Below are positions 1-35,827 of a DNA stretch of 49,083 nt, in pieces. Origin of the DNA: Candidatus Woesearchaeota archaeon (GTDB lineage Archaea; Nanobdellota; Nanobdellia; Woesearchaeales; GW2011-AR9); contig JACQNE010000004.1 of the NCBI GenBank assembly GCA_016203205.1, positions 1-49,083 on the forward strand. Reading direction: 5' to 3'. Under the pieces are notes generated by a model. The model had not been told where the DNA came from and did no database searches. It was given only the letters and a program-made list of their open reading frames with translations. Position numbers and translations under genes: made by a program. The stretch's first letter is position 1. Each line of letters opens with the position of its first letter.

Positions 1-132
1 AGGGATACAGAAGAAAATCGGACCAGTTCCAGTAACGAAAACTCGCCACTCGAGCCTATCCACGAACTTCGTCCGTGGCCATCTCGCATTTTCTAGTATT
101 ATAGCTATCCTTCAGCGACGGCTCATCATCAC

Positions 133-522
133 TTACTCTTCGGATTGTGCCTCTGTCTCTCTCCCAATCAACGCTTCCAATTCGGAACGGGCCAGAACCG
201 GCCGAAAAGCACCCCTGAATTCTAAGAGCAATGGTCGAGTTTTGGGGATATTGGGATTAAACAATTCCCCATTTAATTGAGGATGATACACGCTTCCTTG
301 AGTCAGGAGAGCATAAAAGTCTCCCCCCGTTTTATCTTGATCAAGCTTCTCTTTTGTTTCCTGGTCTACGGCAAACCAGATTCCTTCGCCATTGCCGGAA
401 TGATATTTTTTCCAGGTATCAGGAAGATTGCCTTTGATGAGAAAATATGTTGGCCCCTCATCAGCAATGGCTTCTTCACGGATTTCGATCCATTCATCAA
501 CAGTGTATTGGCGGTTTTCCAT
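133..522 (-). CDS. hypothetical protein (129 aa, acidic)
   Basis: Intact ORF with no motif I recognise. The overlapping + strand ORF 277..561 looks like a shadow frame. Confidence 0.45.
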   Translation of the reverse strand: MENRQYTVDEWIEIREEAIADEGPTYFLIKGNLPDTWKKYHSGNGEGIWFAVDQETKEKLDQDKTGGDFYALLTQGSVYHPQLNGELFNPNIPKTRPLLLEFRGAFRPVLARSELEALIGRETEAQSEE

Positions 523-12281: not shown

Positions 12282-12328
12282 CTGATTTTAGGCAATATTT
12301 TTAAAATGTTCTCTCCAAATAGTAAATC

Positions 12329-12883
12329 ATGACATTCGAGAATGAAAAGAAGACCTATTTGGTAAAGATTGACAAGAGTAAAAAAGGGGAGATTGACCAG
12401 AAAATAAAGCCACTTTTGGCTGCCTTTAACGCTCTCCCAGAGTATTACACGACATCTTCCTGCTCTGGCCGGGTTTATCTCTGGCGTGGTTCCGGGAAGA
12501 AAAATGAGATTGAATGGCTCAAGATGAGCCATGATTTGATCGATCTTGATTTTTTAAAGATAAACACCCACAGCGGTTTAGTCTGGCTGCGTCTGGAAGG
12601 GGTGATCCTGCATCTTGCCTGCCGTGATCTCGCTGCTGCAAATCTGCTCTTGGAGAAAGTACGACATCTGTATAAGAAGAGCTGTCTCTTGAGCGCAAGC
12701 AATAAGATCATCGTTGAAATCCGTGGCAGTGAACTGATAGAGATGCCATTATACAATGGAGAGGAATTGTTGTTTTCAGGAGATAAAGATTGGTTAGTTG
12801 GATTGATCAATCAGAAGCTGGAAAAGATGTGGAATGGTATCGAGAAGCTAACCGGAGAACTTGCCAAAACTAACTGGAACTAA
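12329..12883 (+). CDS. taw3: tRNA wybutosine-synthesizing protein 3 homolog (Taw3/TYW3)
   Basis: Hallmark YTTSSCSGRV motif and the size of the archaeal Taw3 family. Confidence 0.8.
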   Translation: MTFENEKKTYLVKIDKSKKGEIDQKIKPLLAAFNALPEYYTTSSCSGRVYLWRGSGKKNEIEWLKMSHDLIDLDFLKINTHSGLVWLRLEGVILHLACRDLAAANLLLEKVRHLYKKSCLLSASNKIIVEIRGSELIEMPLYNGEELLFSGDKDWLVGLINQKLEKMWNGIEKLTGELAKTNWN

Positions 12884-12918
12884 TTAGGTATTGCTGTTAA
12901 TCTGCCACTAATCTGCCG

Positions 12919-13233
12919 CTAATCTTTTTCTCTTCTCGGTTCATAGATGATATCATCGATTGACGCGATAGTTCCAAAAAGATAATCGCCGGCTTTGAAC
13001 GGGTCTTGGCATTCTTCGACCCTCTGTTCATTTCTGAGAAAGTTGGCAGTTACCGTCAATCGTTCCGCTTGGGTAATCGCCAAGCCATATCTTTCTTCAA
13101 AAGCATCAGCGACGTCTCCTCTCATGATGAGCGTTGCTCTTTCCGGCCCGATAGAAAGATAGGCTTCGTAATGGGTATGCTTCTCAACAATATTCTTTCC
13201 CCAAAATTCAACGGTGTATTGTGTGGTAGTCAT
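12919..13233 (-). CDS. hypothetical protein (104 aa)
   Basis: Intact ORF directly downstream of 13244..13639 on the same strand. No motif recognised. Confidence 0.45.
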   Translation of the reverse strand: MTTTQYTVEFWGKNIVEKHTHYEAYLSIGPERATLIMRGDVADAFEERYGLAITQAERLTVTANFLRNEQRVEECQDPFKAGDYLFGTIASIDDIIYEPRREKD

Positions 13234-13243
13234 CTTTCACTTC

Positions 13244-13639
13244 TTACTCGGCAATGTCTTCCAGACCAATGATCCGATATCCTGTTGGGAGTTCAAATTC
13301 AGATCTCACCACTTCTTCTCTTTGATAATCTCTCAATCCAGATACACTCGTCTCACGGCCTTTTCGTATTCTCCTGTGGATGATCAACAGCGGTTCTATT
13401 CCATCATGGAATTGCACCATTGCTGAATGATATGGAACTTCTACCATTGATCTTTGATCCCCTCGTGTTCTTCCTTGTTGTTCGTCTCCAACATTTCCAA
13501 CCGGCTGACTTACAACCTGAAATCGGTCTGCCTGAAATCGGTCTGATCGTTCGGGGAAACCAGTTTTAGGGAAAAATCTGATTTCGTGTACCCTATACCT
13601 GTCGTTCCATTCTTGGGTTATCTGAGATGTCAATTCCAT
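13244..13639 (-). CDS. hypothetical protein (131 aa)
   Basis: Intact ORF. It contains an in-frame perfect 15-nt tandem duplication (DRFQA x2). Confidence 0.45.
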   Translation of the reverse strand: MELTSQITQEWNDRYRVHEIRFFPKTGFPERSDRFQADRFQVVSQPVGNVGDEQQGRTRGDQRSMVEVPYHSAMVQFHDGIEPLLIIHRRIRKGRETSVSGLRDYQREEVVRSEFELPTGYRIIGLEDIAE

Positions 13640-13703
13640 TTTCAGAGCAGATCAAAAACGTTGTTTAAAGAAGAAAAAAAAATAGAAAAAAAATAAACAG
13701 CGT

Positions 13704-16394
13704 TTATCTCTTCCTCCAGATCAAAGCCATGGCCAAGACCAAAGCGACAAAGATAAGTACAACCATCCCGCCAAGAAGCAGGGTGTAATTGCTGCTGTCG
13801 CGCAGGGAACTATTGACCTGCGGCTGGTTCAGGGCCAGCTTTGCATTCAACTGCTCTTGCAGCTGTTTGGCCAGCGCATCCTGCCCCGTCTCTCCACTGC
13901 CGCCGAGAACGGCTGCTCCCGTTACGCCGCAGTTCTGGATGTTCAGCGTCACGGTCGATGTCGTCTGCAAGACCCCGTCCCGCAGAACTTCAATCGTCAA
14001 AGGATAGCTTCCCGGTGCAGCTTTTTGAAGATCGATCGTAAATGTCGTCTTGTATTCGCTGTCGGAATCACTGAACTTGTCCAGCTTGATGTTTTTCTTG
14101 GACAGATCCAGCTTCAAAGCGCTGTTCTTGACGCGGATTTCAACATTATCCTCGTCATTGCTGCCGAGATTCTTGATCGCGACATCAAGTGTTTCATACT
14201 GCTGGCTGCAGAAAGCATTTCCGCTAAGCAGAGCCGCCTGCTTGACGATGATGTCGTGGCTTTTCACATCTACATCGACGATAACGGTTGCGGTTGTCTC
14301 ATGGACAGTATTATCATTGGCTTTTCCATGGACGGTAACCAAAAGCGTATATTGCTTTTTATCAACGTTTTCATCGCGGAGATCAAAGGTCACTTTGACT
14401 TTGTCGTCATCTCCGCCGCTGCTTAACTTGAACGTGTCTGATTCTTCTTCAAGGTCATCCCCGTCAACATTGAGGATCTGGACATTGACATAGACATCAT
14501 CCATCGTTTCGCTGTAATCATTCTTTACAACTACTTCCACCGTGTTTTCATCAACTAAAGAGAACTTTCCGGTCGTCTTGTCATTGATCTTGATCGTATC
14601 AATGGTCAGGAAACTCTTGGAATTGATGTACACGGGAATTGATTTTGCGCCTTTATCGCTGGAAACTTTGATCGTTCCAACCAGCTTCTTGCCGGAGTTG
14701 CTATTCTTGCTGGAATCAATCTGCAGCGTGACGGTCTTGCTCTCTTCTGGAGCAAGTTCTGCCGGAGCGTTCAACAATTTGGCATTTGCCGTGCTGGCAA
14801 AACCGCTGAGTTCAAAGACGATGCTCTTCACGCTTTCTGTCGTTCCCAGATTCTGGATGGGAAATGACGTACTCAGCGTGGTTGCTGTCTTGTTGTCGTC
14901 AAGGACGATCTCGCTCGGTACGGCTAATTCTGCCGTTTTCTGCTGCATGGCAACGTACGTGGAGAAGCCGGCTACGGAAAAAGTGAATCCGCTGGCGGGC
15001 TGCGGGCTTGCCGGTGTACAGCTGGTCTCTGGACAGAGCACAGCCTGATTAACGATCGTTGCGTCGGCGAAGCCGTCATATTTGTACAATTTGACGGGCG
15101 CTTTTCCGTCAACATTTTTCAAGAAAACTGTCGCTGGCTTGTTCAATCCCGGCGCTTTCACGCTATCCAAAGCGACGAAATTGCTGCCGATCTTGACAAC
15201 TTCGTCAAGATAAAGGGTATTGCTCAAATCAACGACCTGGCTGAACGTCAATGTTCCCGCGGCAGTGCTTAACACGAGATCTTTGACACTGGCTGGGTTG
15301 CTCAGCTGATCGATCTGGCTCTGGGTCCAGCCAAACGCAGCGAGATCCAGCGGCTTATCGGCAACGGTCACTTTCCACGTTTTTGCTTCCTGGTCAAGTG
15401 TTGCTTTGACGGTGAATGTTCCCGCTTTGCTGAACTTGTAATTGAAATTTTTACCCGTGCCTTTTTGTGTTCCATCGACGGTCCAGACGACGGAATTATC
15501 GTAATTCCCTTCGTTGGCCGTAACACCGAAAGAAACAGTTTTTCCATCAAGGATCTTAAAGTCAGTTTCAGTGGGTATGACCGTGCCGCTGAGGCAGGCT
15601 TGCTTGGTAAGAGTTACTGATTCAGTATTCGCCGTACTGCCGGGGATATTGTTGATGTAGTTAAATCCCGTTTCTACGCTCAGCGCGTGCTGTCCTTCTG
15701 TGGTGATCGTAACGGGCAAAGCGAGTGTTTTGCTTTCTCCCGGTTCAAGGGTAAGATCCACGCCCATTTTGGCAGAATTATACAATTCTACAGATCCATC
15801 CATTACTTTCATCACGACATCATCTTCGGCAACTTTGCCGGTATTGGTGATCGTCGCGGTCAATGTTGCGGATGTGAAACAGGTGAGCGTCTTTTTCTCT
15901 GCGGGAAGCGGCTCCAATTTCACAACGATTTCTGCTTTTTCTTTCTTTACGGTGAAATTGAATTCGGTTGCTGTACGGAGCGGCAAATCATCAAGAGTTT
16001 GCCCTTCGGTGGCCAGCAGGAGGGTATATTTCCCTTCGGGGAGATCGGCAGGAAGGGTGGTCGTGATTTTCTGAACCTGGCTTTCCTGTCCGGCGTCAAG
16101 ATGGAATTCTGTTTTTTCAGCAATCGAGAATTCGTATCCGTCTCCATCCCCATTTTCATCAAGGACAAAGTTCGTGATCTTGATCACTTTTTCATTCAGC
16201 GTATTTTTTACTTTGAATGAGACTTCTAATGTATCTAATGGTTTTAGGGTAACGTTCTCTGTCGTGGAGATATCCTTCCCGTTAAGCGAAACGCTGGTCT
16301 GCGTGAGTCCGTCGCCGTTGGCTAGGGCAATCGCTGCCGTTGCCAGGATCAGCAGAACAACGAGCACAACGCTCAGTATGGTTTGTTTTTTCAT
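13704..16394 (-). CDS. S-layer-like / CARDB-type multi-Ig-domain surface protein with C-terminal TM anchor (896 aa)
   Basis: Sec signal peptide MKKQTILSVVLVVLLILATAAIALANG. Repeated beta-sandwich modules with V.N.G...-type CARDB signatures. C-terminal anchor LLLGGMVVLIFVALVLAMALIWRKR. Confidence 0.8.
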   Translation of the reverse strand: MKKQTILSVVLVVLLILATAAIALANGDGLTQTSVSLNGKDISTTENVTLKPLDTLEVSFKVKNTLNEKVIKITNFVLDENGDGDGYEFSIAEKTEFHLDAGQESQVQKITTTLPADLPEGKYTLLLATEGQTLDDLPLRTATEFNFTVKKEKAEIVVKLEPLPAEKKTLTCFTSATLTATITNTGKVAEDDVVMKVMDGSVELYNSAKMGVDLTLEPGESKTLALPVTITTEGQHALSVETGFNYINNIPGSTANTESVTLTKQACLSGTVIPTETDFKILDGKTVSFGVTANEGNYDNSVVWTVDGTQKGTGKNFNYKFSKAGTFTVKATLDQEAKTWKVTVADKPLDLAAFGWTQSQIDQLSNPASVKDLVLSTAAGTLTFSQVVDLSNTLYLDEVVKIGSNFVALDSVKAPGLNKPATVFLKNVDGKAPVKLYKYDGFADATIVNQAVLCPETSCTPASPQPASGFTFSVAGFSTYVAMQQKTAELAVPSEIVLDDNKTATTLSTSFPIQNLGTTESVKSIVFELSGFASTANAKLLNAPAELAPEESKTVTLQIDSSKNSNSGKKLVGTIKVSSDKGAKSIPVYINSKSFLTIDTIKINDKTTGKFSLVDENTVEVVVKNDYSETMDDVYVNVQILNVDGDDLEEESDTFKLSSGGDDDKVKVTFDLRDENVDKKQYTLLVTVHGKANDNTVHETTATVIVDVDVKSHDIIVKQAALLSGNAFCSQQYETLDVAIKNLGSNDEDNVEIRVKNSALKLDLSKKNIKLDKFSDSDSEYKTTFTIDLQKAAPGSYPLTIEVLRDGVLQTTSTVTLNIQNCGVTGAAVLGGSGETGQDALAKQLQEQLNAKLALNQPQVNSSLRDSSNYTLLLGGMVVLIFVALVLAMALIWRKR

Positions 16395-18028
16395 GGTTCT
16401 TCCCTCGCTAGTTTGTTTTTATTGATTGATTTTTTGTCTGATTTTTGGTCTACTACTGCTTTTTCTGGTTTTTTTTGTTTCTCTTCGTTATTGAATTTTT
16501 CATTTTCTGTCTCTTCCTCTTTTGTGCGTTGTTCCACGCCGCGAAAAAGAAGGACAAGCATCCAGGTGATAAACGCAAGAATGATGACCATGCCGGTAAT
16601 CAGCAAGGCAGCAGCGATGTCATCGTTAGTATAAGGATCTTCCACGGTCTGGACAACAAGCGCTGTTTTTGCAGACGAAGTGGAAGCTTTATCTCCCACC
16701 TTATCTCCCCCTGCCGTTCCACCAGTCGCTAAACCTAATCCTTTTTCGGCCGCAGAAACTACAGTCTTGTCGAGAGTTTTTGCCGGCTCATTTTCTTCAG
16801 CTTTATTTTCTGCAGAAACTGGTTCGGGGAGAGTACATTTCTCTAATTTGAACGGGATAATCTGCCGATCACTGTCTTGATTTTTTCTGATCAGCAAAGT
16901 GACATCCAAGGGGTATGCGCCCGGCGGCAGATCCTTGGGGATGAGGAACGAAGTGGTAAAATCATAGCTATTGCCGCTTTTGCTGCTACGAGGAAGAGAA
17001 ATGTCCGGGATGTTTTCTTTTACTCCCAATTTTTGGTTGAAAATGATCAAGCCAACATTTTCCTGATCATTTGTCCCAAAATTCTTGATGATGAGGTGTA
17101 CACTCGCGCTCTGTTCGCACGCTGCTGTTGCCGGTGTTATTTCCGCCGTCGTTATCCGCACATCATCCCGAATTCTTTCTACGGAAAAAGTCAGTTCTTT
17201 CTTAACTTCGTGGAGAAGATTCTTTCCGTCTTCAGCACTCAACGTAATCTCAAAAACAAATTCGTCAGGATCAACTTCATCGTCGATCGTGAAGGTGATG
17301 ACCTTGCTGTCTTTCTTTTGGGCATCGAGGTCATCAAAAGTATAAATCTCATCAAACTCCCGGTCAACAAAAAGATCTAAATCATCTGGTTCAATCTCCA
17401 ATTCGAGATCAACTAATTCGGCATCATCCTGATCATAATCGCGGTCAAAGAGATTTTCGATGTCAAAGGTCATCTTCACTTCCGAACCAGGTTTAAGGCT
17501 ATTATCCAGCGTTAATTCTGCGTTTTTTTCGGTAGCAAATTGCTGGGTCTGGATTTTTCCGTTCTTATCTGTATATTCCACTTTTAGTTCAGAAAGGATG
17601 AGCATGGATTTGGTATTTTGCGTGAGCGTTTTGCTGGCTAATACTTGTTTCGTCAGCGCATCTTTGACGGTCAGCGTGCCGATCGGCGACTCGCCGGAAC
17701 CTTTCTTATGCGGCACTTTAACCGTAAATGAGATCGTTTTTGTTTCTCCTGCGGCAAGCGTCGCCGTCACTTCTCCAGCTTGATAATCGGTCGGAAGATT
17801 GCTCAATTCGATGCTGACCTGTGTGCTTTCAGTTCCATCATTAGCAAGATTTACCTTGCCGTTCACATCAATCTGCTTCTGTGATTCTTCCGTAAACTGG
17901 TTATAATCAACTTCGATGCTGACTTTTTCATCGGTGATCTGAACGGCTGCTGCCGCGCCGATTGTAGTGATTAGTATTAACAATAAAGTGATGGTCAGAT
18001 GCCTGAATACGGGGTTGAATGAAGCCAT
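16391..18028 (-). CDS. acidic CARDB-type surface protein with C-terminal TM anchor and Lys/Glu-rich tail (545 aa)
   Basis: Signal peptide, very acidic middle region, and a module (IIKNFGTNDQENV...PPGAYPLDVTLL) paralogous to the C-terminal module of the 896-aa protein. TM anchor is present. ATGA overlap with the downstream gene. Confidence 0.8.
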   Translation of the reverse strand: MASFNPVFRHLTITLLLILITTIGAAAAVQITDEKVSIEVDYNQFTEESQKQIDVNGKVNLANDGTESTQVSIELSNLPTDYQAGEVTATLAAGETKTISFTVKVPHKKGSGESPIGTLTVKDALTKQVLASKTLTQNTKSMLILSELKVEYTDKNGKIQTQQFATEKNAELTLDNSLKPGSEVKMTFDIENLFDRDYDQDDAELVDLELEIEPDDLDLFVDREFDEIYTFDDLDAQKKDSKVITFTIDDEVDPDEFVFEITLSAEDGKNLLHEVKKELTFSVERIRDDVRITTAEITPATAACEQSASVHLIIKNFGTNDQENVGLIIFNQKLGVKENIPDISLPRSSKSGNSYDFTTSFLIPKDLPPGAYPLDVTLLIRKNQDSDRQIIPFKLEKCTLPEPVSAENKAEENEPAKTLDKTVVSAAEKGLGLATGGTAGGDKVGDKASTSSAKTALVVQTVEDPYTNDDIAAALLITGMVIILAFITWMLVLLFRGVEQRTKEEETENEKFNNEEKQKKPEKAVVDQKSDKKSINKNKLAREEP

Positions 18029-18209
18029 AGTATTGTACCTATTCTGAAGTAGTATTCCGGTTTGGTCTATTTTGGAGTTTCTATTTAAATGTTGTGGTGT
18101 TTTGGGGGCTGGGGGCGGCAGGTTAATACTTCTTTGGAGTGATAAAAATAGGAAGATTAATAAACAAAATGGGGTTTTTCAAAAAATACACCAATAAAAT
18201 TACAACAAT

Positions 18210-18221
18210 AAAATATAAAAT
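18210..18221 (+). promoter_or_regulatory. TATA-like box (AAAATATAAAAT) upstream of 18234
   Basis: AT-rich box about 20 nt upstream of the ATG. It lies in the divergent intergenic region shared with the S-layer-like operon. Confidence 0.4.
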
Positions 18222-18233
18222 ATCTCTGCGGCA

Positions 18234-19232
18234 ATGGATCTTACACAGACAAATTCAGAACTTGAACGAAAAATAAATGAATTGAGAGATTTACCTAAAA
18301 CCTGGTCAGCTAAAGACCGGGATAATCTTGAGCAGGCGCGCAGAATTGCTGTTGAGCTTAATACCGTTTTGCATACAGCAATACATCACTTCGTTCCCGA
18401 TGTTAATGCCGTTCAGATTGTATTAGAACCTCAAGCTCAAGATGACATCATAAGCATGGTCAGGCGAGAGATTTACTTTAATTTGAATAGACACGATTGG
18501 GAGAGTTATGTAAAATCACGATTCCCTTTAGCCCCTCCTGAACCTTTTGTTTTTAATGCCCATCTTCCATTTAATTTTACGACAGGTACACATGGCAGTG
18601 GAGAACGTGATGCAATTGGTGCCTCGCATACAACTGTTTCATGTTCAGTTTTGGCAAATTTACCTGATCTCTGCCCAGTATTACAATTAAACTTAGAATC
18701 TTCTGACTACGCAGCTATTAAAACCCCCTATTTTCTGATCGGCGATGAAGTGAAATCAGTGAGATTGGTTTCCATTGACGATCGGGATTTTAGTCCGCTT
18801 TATGGTGGATTTAGTTCTGATTTAGGGAAGAGATCTGCGTTGTCTCATTATTTGTTTTTTAAAGGTTTTTCCCGGACATTAATTAATGGAAATTTGATTC
18901 CTGATTGTGAATGGAAAGAAGAAGTAGTGAATATAATGCGTAATGTATCGTACCTATCAACAACTTCTTTTACTGATTTTTACCAGAACAATAGGTGGTC
19001 CGGGTTTGCTGCTCTGCAGGAGCCACAAGGTATAACTTTATATGATGTAAATGATCTTGCTCTGCCCTCAGAATTGGTGGGGGTTGATCTAGGAATACAA
19101 AAATCTTTAGTATGTGCGGCATATGCAGTTTTTTTACAGAGACAAGGTAACGCATCAGAAGAAATAACTGCTTATAGTGGAAAGAAAGCCATTGGGATCC
19201 TGAGCCCGGTTGAGACGAAAAGAAGATTTTGA
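18234..19232 (+). CDS. hypothetical protein (332 aa), partner of the proteasome-beta-like gene
   Basis: Intact ORF in a visibly AT-rich segment. Its stop lies 3 nt before the next ATG. No known motif recognised. Confidence 0.6.
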   Translation: MDLTQTNSELERKINELRDLPKTWSAKDRDNLEQARRIAVELNTVLHTAIHHFVPDVNAVQIVLEPQAQDDIISMVRREIYFNLNRHDWESYVKSRFPLAPPEPFVFNAHLPFNFTTGTHGSGERDAIGASHTTVSCSVLANLPDLCPVLQLNLESSDYAAIKTPYFLIGDEVKSVRLVSIDDRDFSPLYGGFSSDLGKRSALSHYLFFKGFSRTLINGNLIPDCEWKEEVVNIMRNVSYLSTTSFTDFYQNNRWSGFAALQEPQGITLYDVNDLALPSELVGVDLGIQKSLVCAAYAVFLQRQGNASEEITAYSGKKAIGILSPVETKRRF

Positions 19233-19235
19233 AAA

Positions 19236-20006
19236 ATGACTTTACTCTTGAGCTTACGATTTACTGATGGAGTACTCCTTGCTGCAGATTGTTTAACGAT
19301 TTATTATCCAGAAAAATTACCTTTATTAGAAAATAAAATACATTTTGCTATCAATCAAGAACAAGACTCATCTTTTAGCGGCAATGGACTATATCTTGGA
19401 TTCGCTGGTCTTGACATGACTTATGGTGGTTCTATCGATAGATTTTTAGCCCATATCTCTCGTGATTTTACTCGATTAGGACATTTAACAGTGGATCATT
19501 TACTGGATAAGGATTGTTTTCAATTGCAAACAGAAATGAAGAATATCAAACGAGGAAGAGCAATTTGGGAGTTGTCAGATGACGAACATAAAGCCTATTT
19601 TTTATTAGATGATTTGCATGTCACTCGAGCATTTGTTCATACTTCAGAACGATTTTTAACTTATCAAGCTGTACGAATGTCTCCAGGAATTGGCCTGGAT
19701 TTACTTCATATCAAAGAAGGGAAAGTATTAGTTAATCCCCCTTATGCCATTAGTGGTTCTGGTGCAGAGATAGTTAGTCCATTCGTGGAAAGTCATTACC
19801 ATCCTCATATGTCTTCTTCTGAAGCAGTAGATTTAGCCTGCACTACAATGAATAAAGTATTGGAGGATAGCTCAGATTATAAAGGGTATTCATTAGTGCA
19901 TGTTGAAAAAACAGATGACATCTTCTATAAAATATCAACGGCAATTGACATTGAAGCAACAAGTATGCAAAGTATGTGTCTCCGAGAAAATCCTGCTTTT
20001 ATGTAA
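19236..20006 (+). CDS. divergent proteasome beta-subunit / HslV-like Ntn threonine peptidase (256 aa)
   Basis: After Met removal the sequence TLLLSLRFTDGVLLAAD...ENKIHF places Thr1, Asp17 and Lys33 at canonical proteasome spacing. It also has LGFAGL, SGSGAEIVSPFVESHY (compare GSGS..A.G.LE..Y) and MSSSEAVDLA. No propeptide is present. Confidence 0.7.
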   Translation: MTLLLSLRFTDGVLLAADCLTIYYPEKLPLLENKIHFAINQEQDSSFSGNGLYLGFAGLDMTYGGSIDRFLAHISRDFTRLGHLTVDHLLDKDCFQLQTEMKNIKRGRAIWELSDDEHKAYFLLDDLHVTRAFVHTSERFLTYQAVRMSPGIGLDLLHIKEGKVLVNPPYAISGSGAEIVSPFVESHYHPHMSSSEAVDLACTTMNKVLEDSSDYKGYSLVHVEKTDDIFYKISTAIDIEATSMQSMCLRENPAFM

Positions 20007-20048
20007 ACACATTCTTTCTTTGGAATAAATCTATTATGGGTAATTCTC

Positions 20049-20552: not shown

Positions 20553-20666
20553 AATTCCACCTCAAAGATATGGGTGCTACTTCATCGACTGCTCTTATAA
20601 CCTTTTCGATGATGGCAGATATATATGGGAGAAAGGGGATAATGAAGATTGGAGCGACTTAATTGT

Positions 20667-21074: not shown

Positions 21075-21132
21075 ATTACGGAAATTACTATTTAAACTTA
21101 ACTCTTTGGTGGTGGATTCTTTGGTACAGACA

Positions 21133-22056
21133 ATGATGAGAAAAACATTGAAAGAATGTCCGGAATGCACGAGCAAGAATATTTTTCGCGATGTGGAAAA
21201 AGGGGAGACAATCTGCCGCGACTGCGGCTTGGTCATCGAAGACCGCATGGTTGATTTCTCGCAGGAATGGCGTGATTTTGAAGAAGATGGCGGCGCCAGC
21301 AAGCGCCGGACAGGAGCGCCGACATCCCAGACTCAGTTTGATCAGGGTTTAGGAACAGAAGTAGGAACAACCTCCGATTTTTATAAATTAAGTTCAGATA
21401 AAGAACGCGACCGCTTCTTTCGCCTGCGTAAATGGAATATCCGGATCAGCACGGCGATCGAACGTAATCTTAAAGTTGCGCTTGCCGAATTGAAACGGGT
21501 CAGCTCCTTCTTACGCCTGCCGCGTTCGGTGGAAGAAGAAGCGGCAACGATCTATCGGCAGGCTGTGCAAAAAGGATTGGTGCGGGGCAGATCGATGGAA
21601 TCAGTTATCGCTGGCGCTTTGTACGCCGCGTGCCGTCGGCATGAAATCCCCCGGACCTTGGATGAGATGGGTGAAGCTTCAGGCATCGAGAAAAAAGAGA
21701 TTGGCCGAACGTATCGCTTTGTAACCCGCGAGTTGGGGATCAGCATCAAACCGAGCAATCCCGCCGATTATATCCCGCGTTTCGCTTCGGCGTTGAAATT
21801 AAGCCCGGAATCACAATCTAAAGCCGTCGAAATCCTGGAAATGGCGCGTGATATTGAATTGACTTCGGGCCGTGGCCCAACGGGCATCGCAGCTGCTGCA
21901 CTGTATGTTTCTTCGTTAATTCACGGTGAGAAACGCACCCAGCGGGAAGTTGCTGATGTTGCCGGCGTGACAGAAGTGACGATCAGAAATCGTTATAAAG
22001 AATTGATCAAGAAGCTGAAGTTAGGCAAGAATGTTGAGAAGAGCAAGAGAAGATAG
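21133..22056 (+). CDS. tfb: transcription initiation factor IIB (TFB)
   Basis: N-terminal Zn ribbon CPEC-x15-CRDC, a B-reader/linker, and two cyclin-fold repeats (RGRSMESVIAGALYAACR; GRGPTGIAAAALYV). The ORF track extends to a TTG at 21106, but I prefer the ATG at 21133. Confidence 0.9.
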   Translation: MMRKTLKECPECTSKNIFRDVEKGETICRDCGLVIEDRMVDFSQEWRDFEEDGGASKRRTGAPTSQTQFDQGLGTEVGTTSDFYKLSSDKERDRFFRLRKWNIRISTAIERNLKVALAELKRVSSFLRLPRSVEEEAATIYRQAVQKGLVRGRSMESVIAGALYAACRRHEIPRTLDEMGEASGIEKKEIGRTYRFVTRELGISIKPSNPADYIPRFASALKLSPESQSKAVEILEMARDIELTSGRGPTGIAAAALYVSSLIHGEKRTQREVADVAGVTEVTIRNRYKELIKKLKLGKNVEKSKRR

Positions 22057-22375: not shown

Positions 22376-23338
22376 TTAAAACAAGAAAAAACCTATTGAA
22401 AAGTAAGGTGCTGCTAATCCAAAAAGAAAAGCAGAAGTATTAGCAATACCCTCTCTTCTCCAAACTCTCTGATAAAAATGATGAAATTCCCGCGGGTCGT
22501 TGTTTAATAATTCCGCATCCTTTTGTGCAAGGTCAACAATTTGCGAATCTTTTGTTCCTTTCTCCAGAAAATGGATGATTTCAGTCACATGACCTGCTCC
22601 CGCGGTTATTGTCTTAGATGGAGCACGGTTATCCCACGTTCGAAGAAATTCGGCCATATAGGCTGAGCGCCGCTGGACGGTGGTGTAATGCGCTGGCCGT
22701 GTTCTTTCGGCAAGTTCCAGACTTAAATGGAGAGGAAAATTGAAATTCTGTTCGGGGAATGTCTGAAAAAAAGAAGTCGCTTCATGCTGGGTCAATTCCT
22801 GTTTCTCTTCTTCACTTTCTGTTTTCTGTATTTCTTTTGCAGATTTTCCAAACGGGGAGAGCAAGAGTGCACATGGCAACAATAAGCTGTTGGCAACGCC
22901 ACGTGCAATAAATTTTTGGACCGCTTCGTATTCTTTCCACTTACCGGCATGATGATCTGGAATTGAGATACCTGATGAGTACTTGAATCGTTCTCGAATT
23001 CCTTCTTCCCACAAACCAGCCAAGGCCGGAGCTGTATTTTTCACAATGTGCAGATAAGGTTGAGATGGTTTCGGCCCATGTACTATTCCAAAAACAGTAT
23101 ACGTTATTCCATCTTTCTCCGTTTCAAGATGGGGAAGCTGATCTGGGAGAGGAAAATGTCTGTAATCTTCTTTAAATTTTTTGAGTTGATATTTGACCCA
23201 TTCTTCGCCCAGCTGCTTCAATAAAGTATCTTCATCTTTCACTACGTGCCCTTCCTGACCGGCGAGAGCGACAAAATCATCTATCGATTCTGCCTGCAAC
23301 GCTAATTCGGGAAGAGTTAATTTGGAAAGACGTTTCAT
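22376..23338 (-). CDS. hypothetical protein with C-terminal hydrophobic segment (320 aa)
   Basis: Intact ORF. The segment ITYTVFGIVHG faintly resembles TraB-family GTxH motifs, but this is not secure. Confidence 0.55.
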   Translation of the reverse strand: MKRLSKLTLPELALQAESIDDFVALAGQEGHVVKDEDTLLKQLGEEWVKYQLKKFKEDYRHFPLPDQLPHLETEKDGITYTVFGIVHGPKPSQPYLHIVKNTAPALAGLWEEGIRERFKYSSGISIPDHHAGKWKEYEAVQKFIARGVANSLLLPCALLLSPFGKSAKEIQKTESEEEKQELTQHEATSFFQTFPEQNFNFPLHLSLELAERTRPAHYTTVQRRSAYMAEFLRTWDNRAPSKTITAGAGHVTEIIHFLEKGTKDSQIVDLAQKDAELLNNDPREFHHFYQRVWRREGIANTSAFLFGLAAPYFSIGFFLF

Positions 23339-26726: not shown

Positions 26727-27587
26727 ATGAAAACAACACCTACACAACTCTCCGTCTTTGAAGGTCAGCACATTCGTAAGATCTGGCATAATGACGAATG
26801 GTATTTTTCGGTCATTGACGTCGTTGGCGCTTTGACTGAAAGTAGTAATCCTCGAAATTATTGGAATATGCTCAAAACGCGTGAGGAAGAGCAAGGAATT
26901 GAACTGTACACAAATTGTGTACAATTAAAACTTTTAGCGGATGATGGTAAGATGAGAGAAACAGACTGTGCTAATACTGAAGCTCTTTTCCGTATAATTC
27001 AATCAATCCCTTCCAAGAAAGCAGAACCATTTAAGCTTTGGCTGGCCAAAGTAGGCTACGAACGTGTCCAAGAAATCGAAAATCCAGAATTGGCCCAACA
27101 GCGGATGAAAGAGATATACAAAGCTAAGGGCTATTCTGATAGTTGGATCGAGAAACGTGTGAGAGGAATTGCTATTCGGGATGAATTAACGGATCAATGG
27201 AAAAATCGTGGGACTCAAACCGAAAGAGAGTTTGCGATATTAACAGCTGAGATTTCTAAAGCAACATTTGGTATGACTCCCAATGAATACAAGGATTTCA
27301 AAAACTTAAAGAAAGAGAACTTACGAGACCACATGGATGATATGGAACTCGTTCTGACAATGCTTGGCGAAGCGACAACCACAAGATTAACCACAGAAAG
27401 AGATTCCCAGCAGTTTCCAGAACTAAAGAAAGATGCCAAAGACGGTGGTGATGTTGCCGGAAGCGCCAGAAAAGATATTGAACACAAGCTAGGTAAAAGT
27501 ATTGTTTCCGAAGATAATTTTCTCGAACAATCTGAGGAACAGAAAAGGATTGAACACGGCAAAGGCAAATTATCAAAATCTATATAA
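26727..27587 (+). CDS. BRO-N domain / DinD-like DNA-damage-inducible protein
   Basis: N-terminal LSVFEGQHIRKIWHNDEWYFSVIDVVGAL matches the BRO-N pattern. The central AEPFKLWLAKVGYERV...ELTDQWKNRG region resembles E. coli DinD-type proteins (from memory). Confidence 0.6.
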   Translation: MKTTPTQLSVFEGQHIRKIWHNDEWYFSVIDVVGALTESSNPRNYWNMLKTREEEQGIELYTNCVQLKLLADDGKMRETDCANTEALFRIIQSIPSKKAEPFKLWLAKVGYERVQEIENPELAQQRMKEIYKAKGYSDSWIEKRVRGIAIRDELTDQWKNRGTQTEREFAILTAEISKATFGMTPNEYKDFKNLKKENLRDHMDDMELVLTMLGEATTTRLTTERDSQQFPELKKDAKDGGDVAGSARKDIEHKLGKSIVSEDNFLEQSEEQKRIEHGKGKLSKSI

Positions 27588-35026: not shown

Positions 35027-35827
35027 ATGGCCTGGATTATTACGAAAGAAGCAAAAACGACACCCAAATTACAAAATCCCCTTTTCATTGAAGGCCTGCC
35101 GGGCATCGGCAACGTCGGCAAGATCGCCGTTGATGTCTTGATCGATGAGTTGAAAGCGGAAAAATTATATTCGTTCTTTTCTCACAAATTTCCCCATTCG
35201 GTGTTTATCAATGAAAAGAACATGGTGGAGATGCCCAAGCTGGAGTTATATTACAAGAAATTCGGGAAAGGAAAAAAACGCGACCTGCTCCTGCTTACCG
35301 GCGATATCCAGCCGATCGATGAAGAGAGCTGCTACCAGTTCTGTGAGGAGATCCTGCAAATCTTACAACAATACGGCTGTTCGGAGATGGTTACCACCGG
35401 CGGCATCGGCCTGCAGAATATCCCCGAAAAACCGCTGGTCTATTGCACGGCAAATGATCAGAAGCTGCTCAAAGAATATTCTTCAAAAAATCTGGGTGTA
35501 GAAAAAGAAATCTTTGGTGTCGTCGGGCCGATCATCGGCGTGACCGGCATTCTTCTGGGGCTGGGCAAACGGCGCGGCGTGAAAGGTGCGGCGTTATTGG
35601 CAGAAACATTTGGCCATCCTCTTTATTTGGGAGTAAAAGGAGCGAAGGAGATCCTGCGCGTCCTGGAAACCCATTTTCATTTCGGCCTGGACATGAAAAA
35701 GATGTCCAAAGAGATTGTGCAGATGGAACAGGAGCTGATGAAGCGAACCCAGGAGTGGGCGGCAGAGATGATTCATACCAAAGCCGGGGCAAAGAAAGTT
35801 GATCAGGAAGCGAATTATATCGGGTAG
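35027..35827 (+). CDS. PAC2-family proteasome assembly chaperone
   Basis: LFIEGLPGIGNVGKIAVD, LLLLTGDIQP and GVVGPIIGVTGILLG. Typical archaeal PAC2/PbaA-B layout. Confidence 0.8.
   Translation: MAWIITKEAKTTPKLQNPLFIEGLPGIGNVGKIAVDVLIDELKAEKLYSFFSHKFPHSVFINEKNMVEMPKLELYYKKFGKGKKRDLLLLTGDIQPIDEESCYQFCEEILQILQQYGCSEMVTTGGIGLQNIPEKPLVYCTANDQKLLKEYSSKNLGVEKEIFGVVGPIIGVTGILLGLGKRRGVKGAALLAETFGHPLYLGVKGAKEILRVLETHFHFGLDMKKMSKEIVQMEQELMKRTQEWAAEMIHTKAGAKKVDQEANYIG

Follow-up and report, generated by a model that had tools for sequence, protein, structure and literature searches.

The 256-amino acid (aa) open reading frame (ORF) considered here lies on contig JACQNE010000004.1 of a Candidatus Woesearchaeota archaeon (GCA_016203205.1). 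It most likely encodes a divergent and probably catalytically competent member of the proteasome superfamily, which belongs to a rare environmental family and occupies its present position through a strain-specific replacement of a single gene, without forming part of a module. The stretch of DNA analysed, hereafter called the window, comprises 49,083 nucleotides (nt), positions 1-49,083 of the forward strand of this contig. The 256-aa ORF directly follows a 332-aa ORF on the same strand. An earlier note on this DNA had described the two as an AT-rich cassette of an unassigned protein and a proteasome-beta/HslV-like threonine protease, probably acquired horizontally and possibly either a regulator plus protease or a defence/toxin-type unit. 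Both ORFs are present as that note described, with a spacer of 3 nt between them, and the tfb gene flanks the pair (Table 1).

On its profile matches and active-site residues, the 256-aa product can be assigned to the proteasome alpha/beta superfamily (PF00227, MEROPS T1-type N-terminal nucleophile (Ntn) hydrolases) as a true but very divergent member. It matched the Pfam model PF00227 (Proteasome) with 30.5 bits against a gathering cutoff of 22.4, where the aligned part covered residues 167-221 only. The NCBIfam equivalog model of archaeal PsmB, TIGR03634, gave 23 bits against a cutoff of 224 over residues 167-224 only, and the protein thus differs from a normal archaeal PsmB, as had been claimed. 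In a phmmer search against Protein Data Bank (PDB) sequences, MTLLLSLRFTDGVLLAADCLT of the 256-aa protein paired with TSIMAVTFKDGVILGADSRT of mature yeast beta1, whereas its GSG and H3-H4 region matched many beta and alpha chains. Hidden Markov model (HMM) alignments placed T2, D18 and K34 on Thr1, Asp17 and Lys33 of mature beta subunits from solved structures.

The protein begins with Met-Thr, has no propeptide, and carries the GSG loop at residues 174-176 followed by the 'VESHY...SSEAVDLA' helices. The distance between K34 and G174 is 140 residues, compared with ~95 in a canonical beta subunit, which gives ~45 extra residues. About 10 of them fall into the K33-G47 interval, and ~35 lie between G47 and strand S6, in the region of H1, H2 and the pore loop. 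From the GSG loop through 'EAVDLA', the protein is equal in length to the Thermoplasma and Desulfurococcaceae beta subunits, and this comparison revealed no insertion between H3 and H4. The C-terminal tail is short (~25 aa). The threonine after the initiator methionine, Asp17 and Lys33 at canonical spacing, the GSG loop with the C-terminal helices of 20S beta subunits, the lack of a propeptide and the 45 or so extra residues between the K33 region and the GSG loop had all been recognised in the earlier note, and each was confirmed; T2 and D18 are invariant and K34 is kept in at least 90% of 17 full-length relatives. Its wording of a "full" Ntn constellation holds for Thr1, Asp17, Lys33 and Gly47, but not for the positions of Asp166 and Ser169, which are not conserved.

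Relatives of the 256-aa protein are few and come from the environment. An exhaustive phmmer search that covered 1.84 billion cluster representatives returned 23 representatives at E < 1e-3, all of which align from residue 1. About 17 of these are full length (244-275 aa), and 17 were aligned. M1, T2, D18, G58, R147, G174, N206 and G217 are invariant in this alignment, K34 and G176 occur in at least 90% of the members, and the long middle segment is common to all 17. Pairwise identity within the family is 20-50%, and the window protein shares 21-29% identity with every other member. No relative above ~31% identity was found in 15 billion proteins, including those of the sister genome described below. 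A word-index homology search with the 256-aa protein returned only the query itself, and the same search with the family profile returned only P0024 and one canonical beta subunit. The family alignments contain no conserved stretch of 7-10 columns, and a degenerate DNA pattern of the family N-terminus found no match in genome contigs.

All family members derive from metagenomes and none from cultured organisms. One of them (OGY48304.1, L016) was deposited as Candidatus Buchananbacteria. Its contig holds genes for a GatE-like protein, an archaeal-type ATP-dependent DNA ligase and a Ski2-like (DSHCT) helicase; because these are archaeal-type genes, the contig is probably archaeal and its bacterial (candidate phyla radiation, CPR) label a binning error. 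The contigs of the protease-family loci bear archaeal genes such as TFB, GatD/GatE-like, TFIIS and archaeal-type DNA ligase, and the family is apparently a small, deeply divergent and ancient one of DPANN archaea. A viral, phage or plasmid origin was rejected, as no relatives were found in IMG/VR, phage or plasmid records.

The family as a whole stands close to archaeal 20S subunits of both types. PF00227 was matched by all 17 members at E <= 0.01 (best 1.7e-12). The NCBIfam models of archaeal beta and alpha subunits were matched by 15 and 13 of the 17, respectively, and the HslV model by none at E <= 1. A search of PDB sequences with the family profile retrieved alpha and beta chains of the 20S proteasome at values down to 1e-8, with matching positions for T1, D17 and K33. 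The profile scored 37.5 bits on a Desulfurococcaceae beta subunit, 35.4 bits on a Woesearchaeota PsmA, 27.4 bits on Thermoplasma beta and 6.2 bits on E. coli HslV, the last two sequences being entered by hand; an hhalign comparison with the same hand-entered HslV sequence gave a probability of 20%. The designation HslV-like is therefore apt for the missing propeptide, as in HslV, but not for the sequence relationship, since the profile reaches ~6 bits on HslV compared with 35-37 bits on the alpha and beta subunits of archaea.

The replacement was revealed by comparison with a sister genome, Woesearchaeota GCA_018302605.1 (contig JAGVZN010000021, JAGVZN01). The gene order 896-aa, 545-aa, 332-aa, X, 167-aa, tfb is common to the window and the sister. 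According to blastn, the two share 83-88% nt identity over 12294-19239 and again from 20047, and collinearity is lost directly behind the start codon of gene X and regained at the stop codon of the 167-aa gene, which is convergent. Gene X is the 256-aa protease gene in the window and a 348-aa ORF in the sister (L001/L002 7007..8053; GC 0.383), which is unrelated to the 256-aa protein and has no Pfam match. Protein identity between the window and the sister is 90.7% for the 896-aa, 81.5% for the 545-aa, 71.4% for the 332-aa and 94.0% for the 167-aa protein, and 96.5% for TFB. The 332-aa gene shows 76-84% nt identity throughout and no sharp fall before 19239. Because its identity is steady up to that point, the 332-aa gene is a fast-evolving orthologue of the backbone, and only gene X was exchanged. 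The slot between the 332-aa and 167-aa genes appears to take up foreign genes, since the replacement gene of the sister is AT-rich too. A search for flanking repeats and mobile-element signatures around the swapped segment found only short, chance-level repeats, and an insertion flanked by repeats or a mobile element was rejected on this ground.

As two genomes with ~85% nt identity fill it differently, the slot has the character of a small hypervariable site, and insertions and deletions relative to the sister are frequent throughout the neighbourhood. The sister has an extra 182-aa gene at L002 8698..9330, opposite 20638..20657 of the window. It also has two tandem genes of 302 and 318 aa at L002 10766..12630, where the window has one 320-aa gene (22376..23338).

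Composition distinguishes the two genes of the pair. The 39 ORFs of the window, which served as the reference for all composition and codon-usage z scores, have a mean GC of 0.445 (sd 0.046) and a mean GC at third codon positions (GC3) of 0.456 (sd 0.089). The 256-aa gene has a GC of 0.354, a GC3 of 0.230 (z -2.5) and a codon-usage distance of z +2.9, which is the largest in the window. The 332-aa gene has a GC of 0.390, a GC3 of 0.289 (z -1.9) and an ordinary codon-usage distance (z +0.55). Of the pair, only the 256-aa gene is compositionally foreign, and this foreign composition together with the comparative data against the sister indicates that the 256-aa gene alone was recently acquired. 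The proposal that both genes are AT-rich with odd codons and were horizontally acquired therefore stands for the 256-aa gene, which has no copy in the sister slot, but fails for the 332-aa gene, which is only mildly AT-shifted, orthologous and collinear. A 146-aa ORF at the contig end is the sole ORF more AT-rich than the protease gene (GC 0.27, z -3.8; GC3 0.19); it has no Pfam match and is possibly foreign as well.

Homologues of the 332-aa protein occur in Woesearchaeota, one with 71% identity and the others with 25-33%. In the homologue alignment, the motif LPFxFTTGTHGSGER at residues 111-125 is invariant, which points to an enzyme or to a site for ligand binding. The protein had no match in Pfam, NCBIfam, PADLOC or PDB sequences, and PDB sequences searched with a profile likewise yielded 0 matches. 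An AlphaFold2 (AF2) model built with eight homologues in the alignment had a pLDDT of 70 and a pTM of 0.74; a fold search with this model against PDB and BFVD found no match at E <= 0.001, with query-normalised TM values of at most ~0.16. These results agree with the earlier description of a protein without a recognisable domain. The possibility that it is a cryptic alpha-like partner of the protease was rejected at an hhalign probability of 1.2%. The 332-aa family is found mostly in Woesearchaeota, with weaker, partial matches on contigs from Gottesmanbacteria (L023) and Gammaproteobacteria (L021) bins. In another Woesearchaeote (L004/L020 2342..3094), a gene of this family lies just downstream of the Rpp14-PsmA-Rrp4-Rrp41-Rrp42-Rpo6 exosome/proteasome superoperon, which is a conserved one; because of the PsmA gene in this superoperon, that lineage can be credited with a canonical proteasome alpha subunit.

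In a co-occurrence test, HMMs of both families were run on every fetched locus. The 332-family loci comprised four protein look-ups, five genome loci and twelve metagenome loci, or about 14 independent loci, and the protease family had 7 independent loci besides the window (8 with the window). The two families adjoin only in the window, and in none of the ~14 other 332-family loci or the 7 other protease-family loci. Elsewhere in these loci, the protease profile matched only the canonical PsmA that another Woesearchaeote encodes in its exosome superoperon. No other conserved neighbour was found for either family in the examined loci. Downstream of distant 332-family genes lies a convergent or unrelated gene, for example one for a HAD hydrolase or YchF. 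The 256-aa, 332-aa and 348-aa proteins had no match in PADLOC and no meaningful match in PHROGs.

These data bear on the view that the 332-aa protein and the protease are a self-contained module acquired together, as a regulator or adaptor plus protease or as a defence/toxin cassette. The 3-nt spacer and the shared strand, which make co-transcription likely, speak for such a module, as do the GC of both genes below the window mean and the position of the 332-aa protein as the most diverged syntenic protein (71% against 91-96% for most neighbours). The downstream slot is moreover filled differently in two close genomes, which recalls swappable effectors. The module is nevertheless very improbable and was largely refuted by the co-occurrence test. 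The 332-aa gene is a collinear backbone gene with ordinary codons, its family never lies beside the protease family in ~14 other loci, its distant members precede convergent or unrelated genes, and hhalign gives a probability of only 1.2% for homology of the 332-aa protein to proteasome subunits; the two-gene cassette and its regulator-plus-protease form were abandoned for these reasons. The defence/toxin form fell with the negative PADLOC and PHROGs searches. Most likely, the 332-aa and 256-aa genes are neighbours by an accident of insertion and do not form a functional module.

The two ORFs lie in one reading frame and on one strand, with TGA and AAA between them. TGA is the most frequent stop among the window ORFs (17 of 39), so the TGA after the 332-aa ORF is taken as a real stop. 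A read-through fusion of the two ORFs was rejected because of this frequency, because the sister 332-aa gene stops at the same TGA, and because all 17 aligned family members start with Met-Thr. The 3-nt spacer ahead of 19236 is too short to hold a promoter, and the 256-aa gene would therefore be carried on a transcript from upstream of the 332-aa gene. The two genes are probably co-transcribed from the A/T-rich region there, where a TATA-like stretch at ~18208-18223 directly precedes the 332-aa start. A sigma-70 promoter and terminator scan around the locus remained at shuffle or chance level; the sigma-70 model is not applicable to archaea.

The proposed mode of action follows the Ntn hydrolase mechanism and the specificity of methionine aminopeptidase, both of which are established. 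Because threonine is a small second residue, methionine aminopeptidase would remove Met1 and expose the amine and hydroxyl of Thr1, and no autocatalytic cleavage of a propeptide would be needed. Thr1 would then be the attacking N-terminal nucleophile, protons would be relayed by Lys33 and Asp17, and Gly47 would provide the oxyanion hole. The ~35 extra helix-like residues in the H1/H2-pore-loop segment may alter ring assembly or cap the active site. Catalytic activity, like the removal of Met1, is a prediction, and so would be any oligomeric state or substrate. At the level of the genome, the single-gene replacement placed the 256-aa gene directly after a conserved Woesearchaeota gene, the 332-aa gene, with which this strain-specific accessory gene is probably co-transcribed.

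Fuchs, Alva and Lupas catalogued 22 new proteasome-like subfamilies in 2021 (PMC8665760). According to this study, Thr/Ser1, Asp17, Lys33 and Gly47 are kept in all homologues, propeptides are confined to beta subunits and HslV, and the PHI and WPH subfamilies are nearest to both the alpha and the beta clusters. Added residues in the H1/H2-pore-loop region were argued to block ring assembly or to form a cap, and neither an informative gene context nor an AAA+ partner emerged for these homologues (PMC8665760). A literature search found no later characterisation of them. The present family resembles PHI in the missing propeptide, the retained Thr1, Asp17, Lys33 and Gly47 and the lack of an insertion between H3 and H4; a single long insertion in the H1/H2-pore-loop region (~35 residues, possibly helical, at an approximate site) would be a further common feature. 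It is likewise close to alpha and beta subunits alike (37.5 and 35.4 bits; NCBIfam 15/17 and 13/17), rare, archaeal with some members labelled bacterial, and without an informative gene neighbourhood or a co-occurring AAA+ partner. Unlike PHI, all members of the present family come from metagenomes.

With archaeal PsmB (TIGR03634), the protein shares the PF00227 fold family, Thr1/Asp17/Lys33, Gly47, the GSG loop and the near-identical H3-H4 motif 'LE..Y...S.EEAVDLA'. In contrast to PsmB, it lacks a propeptide and the conserved Asp166/Ser169, has ~45 residues more, reaches 23 bits against a cutoff of 224, stands as near to alpha as to beta, and is encoded by a strain-specific accessory gene and not by a core gene. 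With HslV (bacterial ClpQ), it shares the Met-Thr start, the Thr1 that would be bared by removal of methionine, and the single gene. In contrast to HslV, which has ~175 aa and a very short pore loop, it has 256 aa and a long insert, and the family scores only ~6 bits on the hand-entered E. coli sequence, with no NCBIfam HslV match. Neither in the window nor in the 7 other protease-family loci does hslU or another AAA+ gene adjoin the protease gene.

The Anbu operon is bacterial and contains ATP-grasp, alpha-E and transglutaminase-like genes; such a context is absent from the 8 independent protease-family loci. Anbu, BPH, PMI-3/PMI-4, ACC and connectase are, like the present protein, propeptide-less Thr1/Ser1 Ntn proteins of the same superfamily, and they were set apart by published descriptions and gene context. 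BPH and the group I homologues are compact, insertion-free and bacterial, unlike the present family. ACC ends in a coiled coil, but the C-terminal tail of the present protein spans only ~25 aa. PMI-3 and PMI-4 have an insertion after H1/H2 as well, but PMI-2 to PMI-6 have an H3/H4 insertion, which is not found here (PMC8665760). Connectase has lost H1/H2 and carries a two-helix insertion between S3 and S4 (PMC8665760); in the present protein, the H1/H2 (Gly47-S6) segment is lengthened instead, and only ~10 extra residues lie near S4/S5.

Two other roles for the 256-aa protein were weighed. That it is the housekeeping 20S beta subunit of the organism, merely divergent as many DPANN proteins are, can be given almost no credence. 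It passes PF00227, its best matches are archaeal 20S subunits, and the 49-kb window contains no other proteasome subunit. However, it falls far short of the archaeal PsmB cutoff (23 against 224 bits), is equally distant from alpha and beta, has foreign codon usage, and lacks a counterpart at the syntenic position of the sister (~85% nt identity); among 15 billion proteins, those of the sister included, nothing exceeds ~31% identity. Furthermore, a PAC2 assembly chaperone gene is present in the window, and another Woesearchaeote encodes a normal PsmA in its exosome superoperon. The use of the Thr1 centre beyond bulk proteolysis, in a connectase-like ligase or transpeptidase, a processing enzyme, or a weak or inactive scaffold, is improbable but has more in its favour. 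Connectase provides the precedent of a monomeric proteasome homologue that works as a specific ligase (PMC7980362; PMC8665760), large H1/H2 insertions are predicted to hinder ring formation (PMC8665760), the Asp166/Ser169 equivalents are not conserved, and Arg147 and Asn206 are family-specific invariants. On the other side, the connectase traits (loss of H1/H2, two-helix S3/S4 insertion) were not seen, the H1/H2 segment being longer; no conserved neighbouring gene offers a substrate; and Thr1, Asp17, Lys33 and Gly47 are all kept, which is compatible with ordinary hydrolysis.

Several observations weigh against a catalytically competent, accessory superfamily member that merely happens to lie beside the 332-aa gene. 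At the canonical Asp166/Ser169 positions the family has [FY]-x-G-[YF] instead, and Ser129 varies in 3 of 17 members; given these changes, activity may be weak or altered. The single-sequence AF2 model of the 256-aa protein had a pLDDT of 31 and was discarded, both as a check of the Ntn alpha-beta-beta-alpha sandwich and as input for a fold search; the site and form of the insert are therefore approximate, and any oligomeric state would be a prediction. The 3-nt spacing could reflect functional coupling in this one strain. The presence of canonical psmA/psmB in this organism is indicated indirectly, by the PAC2 gene in the window and the PsmA of another Woesearchaeote. Finally, membership in the PHI class (reference sequence, for example, WP_012956871.1) is putative, as the fit is one of architecture and published description. 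A bolder extension of the preferred reading, in which the family is an undescribed DPANN-only clade outside the 22 subfamilies of 2021 that moves as a single-gene cassette, is doubtful. Its helical insert might then create a new quaternary form or gating, and a ClpX-like unfoldase, whose gene lies 16 kb off on the same contig, would perhaps serve it in an archaeal counterpart of HslUV.

Table 1. Positions of the gene pair, of segments of the 256-aa protein and of other features in the window
Feature	Position	Strand	Basis
Large proteins of 896 aa and 545 aa, predicted at the surface	13704..18028	-	
Divergent intergenic region, likely archaeal promoter	18029..18233	+	sequence read directly
332-aa gene, conserved neighbour, function not assigned	18234..19232	+	ORF, homologues, synteny
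256-aa gene, propeptide-less proteasome-like Ntn Thr1 protein	19236..20006	+	ORF, PF00227, family alignment
Strain-specific replaced segment (256-aa gene body and 3' intergenic spacer)	19240..20046		blastn collinearity break
tfb	21106..22056		
Bro-N domain protein	26727..27587	+	PF02498, 1.2e-12
PAC2 / proteasome-assembly-chaperone gene	35027..35827	+	TIGR00162, 166 bits
ClpX-like AAA+ protein, 556 aa	35945..37615	+	
146-aa ORF at contig end	48569..49009	-	
Active-site and loop residues of the 256-aa protein	T2 = Thr1, D18 = Asp17, K34 = Lys33, G58 = Gly47, G174-S175-G176 = GSG loop		mature beta numbering
Extra residues in the 256-aa protein	residues 35-57 and about 60-145		family alignment, exact insertion point approximate

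Other features of the window are listed in Table 1. The gene for the 556-aa ClpX-like AAA+ protein directly follows the PAC2 gene. Its product matched ClpX in PDB at 1.9e-48 (residues 209-539), is extended by ~200 aa at the N-terminus, and scored 208 bits with the NCBIfam ClpX model (cutoff 359) and 101 bits with the HslU model. A ClpX-type unfoldase on an archaeal contig without ClpP nearby is unusual; its gene lies 16 kb from the protease gene and is not linked to it in position. The 896-aa and 545-aa proteins have signal-peptide-like N-termini and C-terminal membrane anchors, with faint CARDB and NPCBM-associated matches only. The Bro-N domain, which is typical of viruses and mobile elements, occurs here in a protein encoded in a low-GC stretch (~0.39-0.40).

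Apart from the canonical 20S, HslV, Anbu, BPH and connectase, hardly any proteasome homologue has been characterised, and the example of connectase showed that unexpected chemistry can hide among them. The 256-aa gene adds a very divergent archaeal example in the genome of a DPANN episymbiont. It introduces no new principle, as insert-bearing, propeptide-less homologues without informative context have already been published (PMC8665760); what is noteworthy is the clean gene-for-gene replacement and the rarity of the protease family. The comparative evidence marks the gene as a dispensable, recently swapped-in accessory gene, which should be studied alone and not together with its neighbour.

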